64,000 bases of DNA, from positions 3,648,001 through 3,712,000 of the forward strand of contig OY762069.1 in NCBI GenBank assembly GCA_963665095.1, given 5' to 3'. The DNA is from an uncultured Desulfobacter sp. GTDB lineage: Bacteria > Desulfobacterota > Desulfobacteria > Desulfobacterales > Desulfobacteraceae. Of the stretch, positions 32,427-38,316 are shown in pieces (the first letter of the stretch is position 1; each line of letters starts with the position of its first letter). Made by a program: the position numbers and the translations under genes. The notes beneath the pieces were generated by a model. It was given only the letters and a program-made list of their open reading frames with translations. It had not been told where the DNA came from and did no database searches.

Positions 32427-34867
32427 CTATTTCCAATCCCCGGTCACTTGAAATGCAGCCCAATAAAAAGGATGATTAAATTTTGTATTGGATGATTTCT
32501 GGTTGATGGACATGCCCCGATTTATCAGGTTTTGCGTATCTGTCTGTATGCCTAAAAGGGATAGCTGAGCTAATTGAAGTGCTTTGGTCGGCCGCTGACC
32601 CGTCAACAGGTGTTCATAAAAGTTAATCATCAGCAAGGATGTGGCCTCATCGGAAACCTTCCAGAGAGAGGACATCAAAGCTGGTGTACCCGCATAGAGC
32701 ATACCCCGGGTAAGGCCGACCACCTCATCCCCGACACTGATTTCACCAATTCCGGTTTCACAGGCTGACATAGTGACAAAACGAGCGTTCAGGGCAACTT
32801 TCATTATTTCCCAGGCTTCAAGCCGGCCATCCGTATGATTGTCCCTGGCCAACAGCATTGCACTGCGACTCGGGCTTTGCCGGTTAAACTCACCATGGCA
32901 GGCCAAATGTACAACATCTGCCCGGGGGGCTTGTTCTATAAACGCAGATTCTGTGGCATCCGAACCTGTCAGTATTGTTACTTTGGGATTGCTTTTACCC
33001 TTAAAAAACAGGGCACCTAACTGGTTGGCCTCTTGTGCCGCCCCCGGAAGGGCCCACTGATCCTCCGTCATACCCGGTAGTGTTACCGAAAGATCCGGAT
33101 TTCCAAAAGCCAGAAAGCTGTCAATGGGGCGGCCTGTTCTTTCCCTGCAAAAGGGTAAGATTCCGGCTGCCGGCAGAATTGAAATTTCAGACCGTTCAAT
33201 CAGCCATCCCTGACCGTCATGCAGGGAGGTGAACGGCAGGGTGTGCAATGGCCCGTGGGGAACGATGACCACGCGCCGGGGCAGCCCTTCAGGAAAGGCA
33301 TCCCCGAACAAGGCTTTGTATAGGGCCCGGGCTTTGGGACTGGGATCACCGGTACCGGTGCAGATACTCTTACGAAGCTCAGCAACCATGGCTGAAATTC
33401 TGCGCTCCGGCTGCGCAATGTGATGCACTTGAAGGCCGGAGGTATTGCCCACAAACATCAGCCCCTGATTTTCATTAAGCATAAATTCCACCAGGGTAAC
33501 ATTATCGAAGTAGGGCTTCATCGTGTTCCAGGAGGGGGACTGGGCTGTGACAAAAGAGGCCAGTTCCTTATCACTGGAGGTTAATGCATCCTGGGCGTTT
33601 TGAACACTTCGATTAGCCGCCTCCCGGCTTTCAAGGCTCTTTTTACCACCGTCGGCAAAAACAGATCCAATGGAAGATTTAAATACATTTTCGGTCCGGA
33701 AAGCCAGATAACTGGCCTCCACTTCCTTGTTTTTTCCCAGGGTTTTGCCTTCCAGCAAATCTGCCAGAGCCCGGGCTTTTGATTTTTCAACGATGGCAAA
33801 TGCCTTTTCTATTTCACCATGCATGGCATACCTGATGGCCAATCGTTCATAAGGACGGCCACGGTCTTTTAAAAAATGCCGCTTATAGGAATCTTTCTGC
33901 AAGGCGCTTCGTTCGGTTTCAGCGATGCTGACTGCCTTTTCATAGTGTTCAACAGCCGTTTCAGGCTGTCCCAGATTTTCATAACAATCACCCAGGGCAT
34001 CATGGGCAGTCCATAGGTACTCTCCGCCCAGGGCCGGTGATTGGTGTATGGTTTGGCAATAGGCTTCCAGCTGGGAAGCCGCAGCTTGATAGCTGCCTTC
34101 GAGATAATCTGCATAACCAAAGTAAAATTGTTTTTTGGTTCTGAAATAAAGATTGCTCTCGTTCATTATGCTTCCGGGCACATAAAAGGCTTCTGTGCCG
34201 CCGACAGCCAATATCATGGGAAATGCCACAACCGTCAGGGCAGCCACGCCCGTATCCCCTTTAAAATCTTTTTGATCAATATGTTCTGCGTATTTTCTCA
34301 GCAACCTCGGATCTTTCAGGTGAACGCCAAGGTTCAGCAACCCGGCGTTATAGCCTGGCTTGGCCCACTGCCACTGCTTTTTACTCATGCACCGTTCCAT
34401 CTTCGCCATTGAGATACGGATATCTTCCAGTGCCCTGAAGGTTTTAAGGTCATCGCCATCCAGCAACGATCGCTGCACCATCAGCGGGTGAGCCACCCCA
34501 TAGCTGTAGGAATACCGGCAATCCTCTAGAGTGGGATCGCTGCCATCCGTCATATCCATGGAGTACTCCATGGCTGACAAGGCTGTTTTCAACGCCCTGT
34601 CAAACCGTTCGATTTCACCGGTTTTCAAGGCCGATTCCAGATACGGTGTGATAACTTCCGGCATATTACGAAAATCAATTTGTATTACAATATCCGACCA
34701 GCCCCCTTTCACACTCCTGCTTTCCTGGTCCTTGAGAACATTTTCAATGTGGGCAATGAATGCATCACCGATCAGAAATACTTTTTCATGGTTTCCCAAT
34801 TGTGTATACACCCGCATCAAAGCATCTATCTCCTCTTGCCGCAGCTTTAAGGCCATTTGTTCGGGGG
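32427..34867 (-). pseudogene. TPR-CHAT (caspase-like) lipoprotein, 3' part, interrupted by IS110
   Basis: TPR segments, EKSKARAL, IVPHGPLHTLPF, catalytic HLACHG and MSACETG, HPFYWAAF. Confidence 0.88.
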
Positions 34868-34979
34868 TCACCCATTAAAGGCCGGGTCAAGAGAAAAAAC
34901 ACCTCCCCGTGAAAAAAATTCCTTTTTTTCTTGACCCTCGCACTATTTGTAATTTTTCAAAATCGACAGCTTTTTTCCC

Positions 34980-35285
34980 TGTCCGCGCCTGTTATTTCGT
35001 CGTGTGGTTCACGGAAATGATCCGCACCAGTCACCCATCAGGTTCAAGGCAGATGTGTACCAGGCAAAATGCGTGGTACACGGCCCCTGGTCCGTTCGGA
35101 CCCCAGAAAATCTTCAGTGCCGTACCGTGGCTAATTGTTTGTTTTCAAATCTTATGGTTGTTAACCAACCCCTTACAGGCTCACGGCACAGGCGAATCAG
35201 GATATAAAAAACTGTGTGGCTGCAGCAGTTGCCAATCAAACCTAATGGTTCATACCAACCCCTGAAATGGTTCGCTGCTGCAGCC
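34980..35285 (-). ncRNA. Predicted bridge/seek RNA of the IS110 element
   Basis: Stems GGCTGCAGCAG/CTGCTGCAGCC, GTGCCGT/ACGGCAC and GTGTACCA/TGGTACAC; 8-nt matches to the target flank and to the element end. Boundaries approximate. Confidence 0.7.
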
Positions 35286-35290
35286 TTAAT

Positions 35291-36307
35291 TTACCGGCAA
35301 AAAAGACCTACCTCATCAAAGGGGATCTGATCCCGCATGATATAGTAGGATGCACGGCAAATTTTGTTGCTCAACGCTTTGGTGGCTACAATCCCGTTTC
35401 GTTTGGCATTTTTGCGCTGGAAAAATTTTCTTGCTTCCGGGCAATACCTTTTTGCAAAATTTGCAGCTTCTACATATGCCCAGGCAAGATACTTGTTTCC
35501 GTTTTTTGTATTATTTCTTCCTTTCTTCTTCCCATTGGATATTTTTTCACTTTTAACACAACGGCAATAGGAAGAATAGCATCCTACCTTGGCAAACCGT
35601 TTGATCTCGCCAACCTCAAGCATGATAGTCAGTGCCAGAATATTGCCGACACCCGGTATTGTTTTAAGCATTTCAAAGGCTTTTTTCATTTTAACCTGGG
35701 AAAGCGCCTGTCGTTCAATCGCTTTGATGGAATTACTCAGGTCCTTGATGGTCCTGATCTGAAGTGCTGCCATGAACCCCTGATTTGAATCAAACATTTG
35801 ATGAACCTCAGGTTCCTTCAATTTTTTGATCGCATTACCTGACATTTTTATGCCAAGTTGCCTTGTTACCATGCTTTGTAAACTCAAAATTTGAGTTGTT
35901 CTTTGCTGCACAAACAAAAGTCTTCGGCGTAAAATATCCCGGACAGCTCTTTCTTCCCGAGGATAAATGTAGCCTTCCGGCAGAATGTTTAACCGCCTCA
36001 TGTGTGCGAGCCAGAAGGAGTCCCACTTGTCGTCGGTATACTTGAGCCCTTCGTACTGTTGAATGGCTGACGGGTTGGCCAGATGAACTCTATAGCCGTT
36101 TTCCTCAAGGCCATCAACCAGCCAGTACCAGTTGTAGGTTGATTCTACCACGATACCTTCCAGATTTTGTCTGAACGGTTCCAGAATTTGAAGTACATCC
36201 GGCAAATTATTGTCAAGCCGTTTTCCAAATAACCGTTTGTCATTTTCATCAATGATTCCTACGTAATTATTGCTTGAATGCAAATCAATTCCAGCGTAGA
36301 GTTTCAT
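35291..36307 (-). CDS. IS110-family recombinase/transposase
   Basis: DEDD domain (YAGIDLH, VVES, TDDKWDS), TIPGVG, ISNGK, GNKYL. Confidence 0.95.
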   Translation of the reverse strand: MKLYAGIDLHSSNNYVGIIDENDKRLFGKRLDNNLPDVLQILEPFRQNLEGIVVESTYNWYWLVDGLEENGYRVHLANPSAIQQYEGLKYTDDKWDSFWLAHMRRLNILPEGYIYPREERAVRDILRRRLLFVQQRTTQILSLQSMVTRQLGIKMSGNAIKKLKEPEVHQMFDSNQGFMAALQIRTIKDLSNSIKAIERQALSQVKMKKAFEMLKTIPGVGNILALTIMLEVGEIKRFAKVGCYSSYCRCVKSEKISNGKKKGRNNTKNGNKYLAWAYVEAANFAKRYCPEARKFFQRKNAKRNGIVATKALSNKICRASYYIMRDQIPFDEVGLFCR

Positions 36308-36489
36308 TTGGCACCTCCTAAATCCAAAGTGTTCTTGTTGAACTGGTACTATAGCAATCGTTGCTATAGTTAGGGAGGTGTCACTTTTTTTTCTAATTTG
36401 CGAGGACCTGCCATCATACGATTCTATGAAAAATATCTGTGATGACAGGTAGCTTTCGTTCCTGCTTTCGCCTGGCCTTTATATGATTA

Positions 36490-36673
36490 TCAAACCTTTT
36501 TCCATCTTTTTGGCCAGGGTCAAAGCCTCGGTCCATTTTCCGCTCATGGCCAATTCCTGGCTCATGGCTTTTAGCCGCTGTCCACGCATTTGCCCCCCGG
36601 CGCAGCCGGTAATAAGCATCAGGGCGGCCCCAAAAGAGGCTATTGAAAACAGGCAGTATCTAAAATTGTTCAT
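36490..36673 (-). pseudogene. TPR-CHAT lipoprotein, 5' part
   Basis: Lipoprotein signal LMLITG-C; joins in frame to 34867 (KGLTPEQM) when the IS is removed. Confidence 0.78.
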
Positions 36674-36703: not shown

Positions 36704-37669
36704 CTAATTTTGAAGTGCAGCATAACGGGTCACCAACTTATGACCGGCTCGTTCCATGGCATTCAGCAACTTTGCTGAAAATTCGATGTTATCACAGAAA
36801 GATACAACCACAGCCCCGCTGGCCGTATCAATCATATCCAGATTGATAAGAATGGTATCGCCTTGCAGAAGAATGGATCCACCAACCATTTTGGAGACAC
36901 CCAGTGCCTTTCCCATCTCCATCAGGCAGGATTGATTACAGGGGATTACCGGTTTATTTTGCTGCTCCGAGAGGAGCAGGTTCATCTCCTTAACACCAAG
37001 AATATTAAAGTAAGCGGTTCTTTCCAGCACCGAACGAAAATAGTTACTGAGAATAACTTCTTCTGTTTTAGACAGCCCTGCAGCGCCAATATCTGCCACG
37101 GCAATCATTTCAGGTGAATCCATGGGTTTGGGTAAATTTTCAGCCAGAGCCGTTTTGTAGCCTGAGGACGACAAGGTGGTCTCTTTGTGCTTCAATTCCC
37201 TTTCGATCTCCCTGAAAACCTCGCGAACCATCATTTCGGTGGTACCCATGTACACCAAGGCCACATTTGAGGTCCCGCCGGCCAGTTTCTCGCCGGTTTT
37301 CCGGTCTGATATTTTCACCCGGAACCGGTTGAGCTTCAAACCTAGAAGGTCTCTATTGCAATCATACCTGAACATGGCGATCATTTCTGCATCCTGCTCT
37401 GATGTGACAAATCTAAAACCCATTTTTTCCAACTCATCCACCACAAAGGGCTTTAAATTCATTTTGTCGTCATGGGAATATTTCATAAAAATTGTTTTAT
37501 TGAAAAATTGAAATATCTCTGATGCCACCTCCGTTGAGACAGTGGCGCCGGCAGCAGACACGCTTGAACTCGTGAGAAATATCATGCCAGCAACGCACAG
37601 GATCATGTATTTGGCAAAATAGAAAAGCCTGTCTACAGTTCGAAATTTTGTTTCAGCCGGATGAATCAT
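36704..37669 (-). CDS. Hypothetical exported two-domain protein (CsgG/TolB-N-like fold possible)
   Basis: Long ORF with N-terminal hydrophobic segment; CNQSCLMEMGKALGVSKMVGGSI; directly upstream of the CHAT gene. Confidence 0.65.
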   Translation of the reverse strand: MIHPAETKFRTVDRLFYFAKYMILCVAGMIFLTSSSVSAAGATVSTEVASEIFQFFNKTIFMKYSHDDKMNLKPFVVDELEKMGFRFVTSEQDAEMIAMFRYDCNRDLLGLKLNRFRVKISDRKTGEKLAGGTSNVALVYMGTTEMMVREVFREIERELKHKETTLSSSGYKTALAENLPKPMDSPEMIAVADIGAAGLSKTEEVILSNYFRSVLERTAYFNILGVKEMNLLLSEQQNKPVIPCNQSCLMEMGKALGVSKMVGGSILLQGDTILINLDMIDTASGAVVVSFCDNIEFSAKLLNAMERAGHKLVTRYAALQN

Positions 37670-38316
37670 AGGATCCTCTTCAAGAAAATGGCGCATTAAA
37701 AGCAAAAAAATTGCTTTTTGTTAAAAACTTAAAAAAAAGGGACAGGAACTTGATAGTTTAAAAAATATTGAAAACTTTTTATATAAATAGTGCCTGGACG
37801 AAAACCCCGTGTGACTTGCTTTATCAGAAGGAAATAATTGAAGTCAAGCCTCAAATCCACCTCCTAATTTGAGGATGCCCCTGTGCATATCATTTTCAGG
37901 GTGGCGCAAATCCGGGGGTAATGGCCGCCTGAATCAAGCCCTGCTTCACCCCCTTGAAAATGTGCTCAGGGATTTAAAGCGACGCCTGGAGATCCACCGT
38001 ACAAACATCACAGCAAAAATTCGATGATTTTGTATATTTAATATAATTTTTTGGACAATTAATTTATTATCCACATATTTTTTGATTTTTTATGAGTTTG
38101 ATGCAATTTTTTATTGACTCGCTTTATTTTAAGTATATAAAGTATTATATATGTAACTGATGCCGAATGAATAATACCCCGGCAATCTGCCATTATCTCC
38201 GGCATTGCAAAAATCACGGCCCTGTCCGATTTCCAATAGTCGGTCAGATCCTCAAAAACAGGCATGAACGCGGTCTAACGGCGTCTGGTGGTTCATGCAG
38301 ATAAAAAGGAGACTAA

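Follow-up and report, generated by a model that had tools for sequence, protein, structure and literature searches.

A gene for a predicted TPR-CHAT lipoprotein (32427-36673) is interrupted by an insertion element in the 64,000-nucleotide stretch of DNA from an uncultured Desulfobacter sp. that we analyzed (contig OY762069.1, positions 3,648,001 to 3,712,000; hereafter the window). What is this element, and how was this site chosen? We consider it probable that this is an intact ISGsu4-like IS110 element with a three-part guide RNA, in which one target-binding loop (T1) would pick the site, a second target-like loop (T2) would also pair with the target, and a donor part would match the joined element ends. 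Unless stated otherwise, coordinates are window positions, and the parts of the element and of the interrupted gene lie on the minus strand.

Element boundaries and the empty allele

The IS110-family element is 1,622 bp long (34871..36492), starts with TGATAATC... and ends with ...TAATGGG. The 5' part of the interrupted gene (36493..36673) encodes a predicted lipoprotein signal (LITGC), and the 3' part (32427..34870) is an 814-aa ORF with TPR (288-324) and CHAT (513-812) regions. The gene product matched the Csx29 profile weakly (39 bits vs a cut-off of 300), and the ORF upstream (36704-37705, 333 aa) had no Pfam match. A first-pass annotation of this DNA had removed 34868-36489, which is the same 1,622-bp excision in a different register. 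Whichever of the four equivalent registers is used, deletion of 1,622 bp leaves ...AAAAAGGTTTGACCCCCGAA..., with the open frame of 874 aa that the annotation had described (873 codons from 36670, 874 aa with the ATG at 36673). Excision of 1,621 or 1,623 bp leaves a frame that closes after 66-87 codons.

Among 40 relative genomes, the best matches to the CHAT gene reach 30-36% identity and none is a close ortholog, so we searched for the empty allele in run contigs. The empty site predicted by the annotation was found exactly in contigs of two of the four runs compared, X10 and X11, which belong to different studies: 34867 is joined to 36490, with 1,622 bp skipped and 3 shared letters. This joint was absent from runs X9 and X4. 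The empty allele reveals a scarless insertion around a short core, with no target duplication beyond the core. We had also considered CCCC as element sequence, which the empty allele rules out. Run X11 contains a second joint at 34867-36497, where 1,629 bp are replaced by 7 other letters (depth 3, one contig); this may be an error or an imprecise scar. No end-to-start circle junction was present among the 15 of 19 run-contig joints listed.

The genome carries a second full, identical copy of the element, with ...TCAAGGTT preceding TGA on the left and CCCCAGG following TGA on the right. It also holds several fragments and one copy with a deletion, whose right flank is CCCC. Both AGGTTTGACCCC sites in the genome are occupied, and none is intact. 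Remnants in G000 (contig C1) include a 25-bp right end at 6303841-6303865, bordered on each side by target-like sequence, and a 5'-truncated copy at 4586877-4587772 with a 230-bp internal deletion that is also seen in three runs (joint 35326-35557). At eight loci (L001, L034, L037, L040, L091, L248, L257, and L283), the sequence of the element's right end (CCCGCCCTTT..., CCCGGCCT...) occurs again in the right flank, as either an assembly artefact or an end duplication would produce.

The recombinase and its predicted downstream RNA

The element encodes a 338-aa DEDD recombinase (35291..36307) that matches PF01548 (50.9 bits), PF02371 (50.6 bits), and NF033542 (178 bits vs a cut-off of 140). 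The gene is intact, and its product has the N-terminal DEDD RuvC domain and the C-terminal Tnp domain with a serine that define the IS110 family. The catalytic D/E/D/D and the Tnp serine align with those of IS621, the serine being followed by N, not G, and phmmer searches against the solved structures of IS621 and ISCro4 (IS622) gave an E-value of 4e-7 to both.

The assignment to IS110/IS1111 in the first-pass annotation holds for IS110 and for an IS1111-like layout. The non-coding sequence is longer downstream (~420 nt) than at the left (~185 nt), the protein length falls within the range of 330-350 aa, the top-strand guide GGGGT lies 5' of the bottom-strand guide, and there are sub-terminal inverted repeats (8 bp perfect, 10/11 extended). 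The transposase is not of the typical IS1111 type, as the motif GL-P----S(T)G is missing (the aligned stretch is RCVKSEKISNG). The nearest named transposase label is ISGsu4, and a 46%-identical protein annotated as 'ISGsu4 family' has the same ends and a three-module RNA region. Because of the missing motif and the nearest label, we file the element as IS110 with an IS1111-like layout and not as an IS1111 member. In its published matrix row, ISGsu5 shares 15-26% identity with the 199 elements listed there.

At the left end, GACACCTCC (36382-36374) is complementary to the transposase RBS GGAGGTG (36318-36312), and this pair (36312..36382) is predicted to hide the RBS. The motif recurs in many homolog left ends when inspected by eye, and the predicted pairing likely blocks translation of read-through transcripts.

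For comparison, we collected about 170 transposase loci (173), which form 92 clusters at 90% nucleotide identity. Comparisons of target-loop left guides with flanks contain one row per 90%-cluster (n=62), and each table covers the loci with the flank, end, or guide concerned; tree-independent pairs were counted on a FastTree tree. The element ends are conserved in these homologs as TGATAATCATATAAAGGG ... CCCTTTAATGGG.

The predicted fold of the element's right end is better than that of every one of 100 shuffles (z -3.5). In the structure that we named over 43 aligned sequences, 93% of cells are paired and 30 of 46 pairs show two-sided, compensatory change; this exceeds 500/500 shuffles and all slid controls (~35% paired in the latter). 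Helices 8 and 9 are weaker (78% and 72% paired). Our analyses predict that this non-coding end makes a three-part guide RNA. Rfam returned nothing above threshold and one chance match, and a promoter scan of the linear element gave counts at chance level. A 3' hairpin with 15-bp arms (34884..34937) finishes with TTGACC (34890-34885), which could act as the -35 of a promoter at the circle junction: joined ends would place GATAAT 15 nt or TAATCA 17 nt from it.

Guides, core, and target sites

T1 (35218..35285) comprises a right guide (GGGGT, 35262-35258), a hairpin, and a left guide (AGGTTTGA, 35243-35236). The left guide matches the left target flank AGGTT (36493..36497), and the right guides match the target-derived core TG with the right target flank ACCCC (34864..34870); in T1 the right guide continues with UG, wobbling on the core. 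The motifs that had been described for this RNA are all in place. On the minus strand, AGGTTTGA recurs at the target (36497-36490), ATGGGTGA lies at 35038-35031 and 34875-34868, and GGGGTTGG lies at 35262-35255; the 11-bp stem pairs 35285-35275 with 35228-35218, and TTGG and CTGG directly follow the target and donor 8-mers. That description overlooked the T2 module and the right-donor guide. In 3,000 dinucleotide shuffles of the 400-nt right end, there were 48 occurrences of the target 8-mer and 35 of the donor 8-mer, and the two never occurred together.

The annotation had also proposed a covariation check among homologs, and the guides do vary with target sites and element ends. Counting back from TGA, the T1 left guide and the flank are identical at -1, -2, -3, -4, and -5 in 58, 52, 51, 59, and 56 of 62 clusters, respectively, and the match drops beyond -5 (19/62 at -6, 13/62 at -7). 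A guide U over a flank C, which allows U-G wobble with the bottom strand, is found three times at -1 and seven times at -2; the reverse is found 0 times at both. Among the first 37 clusters, none of 5,000 permutations of guides against flanks reached the observed match. Counts of independent pairs that changed in the same vs the opposite way were 8.7 vs 0 at -1 (p 0.004), 12.4 vs 0 at -2 (p 0.0005), and 8.6 vs 2.0 at -3 (p 0.065 only). The right flank and the T1 right guide barely vary in the main clade (flank CCCC in 42/62, guide GGGG in 79/87), and the right arm is therefore supported mainly by the distant classes.

T2 (35120..35191) is homologous to T1 and likewise has a right guide (GGGGT, 35172-35168), a hairpin, and a left guide (AGATTTGA, 35152-35145). 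It shares the build of T1 (GA[AG]CC, 5-6 nt, GGGGT, TGG hairpin CCA, AGATTTG) and sits between T1 and the donor guides in a covarying stem of its own (helix 4, two-sided change in 8/10 pairs). We found T2 in 133 of 134 loci, 129 by pattern and 4 more by eye, and the T1 profile detects T2 in its own genome (E 8e-5 genome-wide). Two loops are visible by eye in two relatives that are ~31% identical, where the A1 profile gave no match.

The T2 base at -1 follows the flank (50/62 identical; 12 pairs, 6.5 vs 0, p 0.03), the base at -3 lags (16/62 non-pairing A:G cases), and the module ends in TGT rather than TGA in 53/75. Over 98 distinct sites, T1 pairs fully at 80 and T2 at 49, and T2 is better than T1 at 1; the T2 of the window has one mismatch to both occupied sites. 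The T2 right guide changes with target class, being GGGGT for ACCC, ATGGC or ATGGT for TGCCA, and TTTGAC for TGTCAA, and it is rewritten in relatives of 46-54% identity that have other targets. By eye, it pairs at only ~3/5 in L213 and L216. In our reading, T2 would be a working target-pairing loop of secondary rank that belongs with the donor part, and T1 would be a separable specificity module. Three elements (L003, L004, and L005) have neither T1, T2, nor the right-donor guide, yet lie at proper target sites (AGACT, AGATC). The genome that holds them also carries the two-loop element L023, and they were either guided in trans or lost their loops after insertion.

In the predicted multi-branch donor part, the left-donor guide ATGGGTGA is presented in a hairpin loop closed by CCTG/CTGG (35027..35042). 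At the varying column, this guide and the right end agree as A/A in 6 and as G/G-type in 48 cases, with 1 discordant (n=55), and there is one further GAG/GAG case; the independent pairs number 5 only (p 0.125). A likely right-donor guide, GATTTTC (35106..35112), pairs with the element left end GATAATC with one mismatch and has two compensatory columns. It carries G at the second place with TAACC ends (3/4) and A at the third with TATTC ends (3/3); 7 TATTC-end clusters keep the common form. Tree tests of this guide were not significant, with too few independent changes. The left sub-terminal inverted repeat TAAAGGCC (36474..36481; 10/11 with extension) changes together with the right repeat GGCCTTTA (34876..34883) in most of the listed homolog pairs.

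Several breaks fall at the left-donor guide. A decayed relative in G000 (contig C1, 3402022-3402481) stops exactly at left-donor-guide DNA, with ATGGG next to TGA and then CCCC, as if the guide-coding DNA had acted as the element right end. Contigs of X11 and X4 share a loose end at window position 35030, and L008 and L212 break at the left-donor guide likewise. Such breaks would fit donor half-match recombination.

The junctions locate the core. The left triplet is TGA at all 119 distinct sites with both junctions, and the right triplet is TGA at 84, CGA at 18, TGC at 13, TGT at 3, and TGG at 1; in this survey, the T was outside the search pattern for the first 173 loci and inside it for later loci. 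Four copies in one genome (G193) are identical over 1,559 nt and have CGA as the right triplet once and TGA three times, and near-identical copy pairs in three other genomes also differ there. Because the left TGA is constant and the right triplet varies between identical copies, we assign the left triplet to the element and the right triplet to the target, which means that the top strand is crossed just 5' of TG. The right guides end in a base that pairs with the core G, and they treat the position after TG as the start of the right target, with U opposite A, G opposite C, and A opposite T. Since they read this position, the core is TG and the following A is shared by coincidence. The TGA/GA core of the first-pass annotation thus gives way to TG. 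A GA core, suggested by right ends GGGCGA, was dropped since identical copies differ there and distant relatives show TGT or TGC.

At 111 of 115 sites, the left-donor guide ends in the same letter that follows TG in the target (A at 98, C at 11 from few lineages, and T at 2), and this final guide base is a predicted handshake base. A double-strand staggered exchange would be expected to leave the target-core C at either junction, and the observed 18 to 0 fits top-strand transfer followed by copying. We interpret this asymmetry as suggesting top-strand-only insertion with the other strand copied; biased repair could give the same pattern. The accessible parts of two reports describe top-strand-only transfer for CazIS110-1 (10.1101/2025.10.25.684509) and argue for top-strand transfer in IS621 excision (10.64898/2026.08.31.748434). 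Coming from a branch distant from IS621, the asymmetry offers genomic evidence on the current debate between cut-and-paste and top-strand copy-in.

A hairpin joins the left flank to the insertion site in 42 of 133 distinct flanks, compared with 2% of 4,684 genomic TGACCC sites. A RAYT-like motif is nearby in 13/133 flanks vs 1.25% per control window, and all 9 tested ORFs with this motif match Y1_Tnp. The site in the window lies outside any hairpin and is a sequence match inside a gene. As part of the reading favored here, and with the same good confidence, the usual target of the clade would be a TGACCC palindrome arm, often beside RAYT-like genes, and the window copy would have hit a look-alike in a gene. 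REP targeting is known for IS110 elements from the accessible text of PMC11208160. In G000, TACTCTGACCCC occurs 37 times, 29 of them with GGGGTC upstream, forming a REP-like palindrome family, and a fragment of a relative (6041507) starts inside one of these palindromes. A sub-branch of 52-54% identity (L241-L246, L272-L275, L278, and L279) targets ...CT^TGCCAWW with all guides rewritten; its T1 left guide ends in G, and five copies are found in G418.

The element in the window carries one T1, and 23 of 134 loci have two T1-type modules by the T1 profile, some of them decayed. The two-T1 state corresponds to four changes on the tree. Of the 17 listed sites occupied by two-T1 elements (9 guide pairs), 9 are matched best by the first loop and 8 by the second; full pairing is confined to a single loop at 14 of them. 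These counts exclude L055, which has a false second loop; L231/L280 (loops AGGTT and AGGTC, both sites AGGTT) escaped the two-loop search pattern, and one site may have been counted twice as L169/L173, and possibly another as L182/L187. The G193 element has guides AGGTT and AGATC. Two of its four copies are at AGGTT, where only loop a pairs, and two are at AGACC, where loop b has 4 identical bases and 1 wobble and loop a needs three wobbles. In some relatives, added loops with different guides likely let one element use two kinds of site. We lean slightly toward viewing the whole as a natural multiplexed guide array, that is, a three-module RNA with two working target loops whose specificities are gained by tandem loops. 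In such an array, found in a deep branch of bridge recombinases, a single recombinase with one donor loop would insert at several programmed targets. A literature search, with figures, bioRxiv supplements, and subscription papers outside its scope, found no relevant paper on several target loops in one element; the accessible text of one report mentions tandem non-coding units beside IS110 genes and does not name target loops (10.64898/2026.08.14.744561).

Proposed insertion mechanism and related systems

The empty site and the guide covariation support the claim of the first-pass annotation that this is an intact RNA-guided recombinase system, as far as sequence comparison can tell. By analogy with the known chemistry of IS110 elements, excision would yield a circle in which ATGGG is joined to TGATAATC. 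Recombinase dimers bound to the target and donor loops would then cut the top strand just 5' of TG (AGGTT^TGACCCC), and the cut strand would be joined to the element. The other strand is likely copied and not exchanged, because the left junction always has element bases and the right junction has target bases. The last base of each left guide would likely pair with the partner DNA after exchange, as in a handshake. Specificity would rest mainly on T1, a module that changes fast, that some relatives have duplicated with new guides, and that may work as a separable target-only (seek) RNA. T2 would change more slowly and stay fixed to the donor part, most likely as a one-piece target-plus-donor bridge. 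This division of labor between T1 and T2 is our suggestion.

The role of T2 is where other accounts have to be weighed. The element could use an ordinary two-loop bridge RNA, with T2 an old T1 duplicate that serves as a protein-binding scaffold and whose guides follow by descent or gene conversion. In keeping with this, T2 tracks T1 (7.0 vs 0 pairs) no less closely than it tracks the flank (6.5 vs 0), is needed to explain one site only, and mostly ends in TGT without the closing TTGG register of T1. However, T2 guides are rewritten to the local target in the 46-53% and ~31% branches despite diverged scaffolds, and in L213 and L214 the left guide of T2 matches the flank at least as well as that of T1 does (by eye). 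The T2 base at -2 also stays U (59/62), the sole letter that pairs with both flank variants. We regard the scaffold account as unlikely on this evidence. Relatives of the L214 protein were absent from viral contigs.

Alternatively, T1 and T2 could be two independent and equal target loops that widen the range to AGGTT and AGATT sites, an account to which we give about half the weight of the scaffold account. Both loops have the same layout and target-like guides, tandem T1 copies appear to widen the range, and no intact AGATTTGACCCC site is listed in the genome either. Against it, 1 of 98 sites is better explained by T2 than by T1, and the close copies that are full or nearly full and have a left flank, three in number (those in the window, L090, and L091), are all at AGGTT, as is L282. 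It is highly improbable that the guide-flank matches arose without RNA pairing, through a protein-read target, guides copied from flanks, or chance. The guides are short (5 + 3 nt) and main-clade targets are alike, but the one-way U-G wobble, the sharp end of the match at -5, the tree-independent covariation, and donor guides that track the element ends all argue for pairing, and the accessible parts of PMC11208160 and PMC11187229 establish the mechanism.

The basic guide mechanism is already known (published in 2024); what appears to be new here, at the level of sequence, is the three-module RNA and the tandem guides. The conserved second target-type loop and the tandem loops with different guides suggest how bridge RNAs may gain targets without losing old ones, and multiplexed insertion could build on them as a natural scaffold. 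Each of the four guides, the core, and the empty allele is now mapped for an ISGsu4-like recombinase of predicted activity, which makes it ready for a bench test. No paper on the RNA of the ISGsu4/ISGsu5/ISShfr7/ISShwo5 group was found in the literature; by eye, ISGsu4 (ISfinder) has a CR(L/C)VK motif similar to that of our element.

Comparisons with published systems refer to the accessible parts of the cited papers. IS1111-type RNAs lie downstream, have the top-strand match first, and carry donor guides in a multi-loop (PMC11208160, PMC11187229). Like the IS1111-group elements ISEc11, ISKpn4, ISPa11, and ISPst6 (Siddiquee 2024, PMC11187229; Durrant 2024, PMC11208160), the element has a long non-coding end downstream of tnp and sub-terminal repeats. 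It also resembles the seekRNA elements of that group in its 338-aa transposase, top-strand guide 5' of the bottom-strand guide, overlapping matches, multi-loop donor guides, and, in some relatives, REP-like targets. It differs from them in its ISGsu4-like transposase without GL-P----S(T)G, its ~300-nt RNA region, its two target-type loops, and the tandem loops of its relatives; those parts of the two papers describe no element with more than one target loop.

With IS621 and ISCro4 (IS622) (PMC11208160; 10.1101/2025.05.14.653916; PMC13626964), the element shares DEDD and serine residues, a 2-nt core, four guides, handshake-type bases, and, in some relatives, probable REP targeting. Unlike in those elements, the RNA is downstream, the guide order is reversed, there are three modules instead of two loops, and the handshake-like base ends the left guides and is not beside the right guides. 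The proposed top-strand-only transfer and use of donor half-sites alone resemble CazIS110-1 (Sun 2025, 10.1101/2025.10.25.684509) and IS621 half-match recombination (Xie 2026, 10.64898/2026.08.31.748434), where an abundant RNA with the target loop only occurs beside the full bridge RNA, and we predict a counterpart here. In CazIS110-1 and IS621 that target-only RNA is a piece of one bridge RNA, whereas the DNA of this element encodes two target-type loops with different guides.
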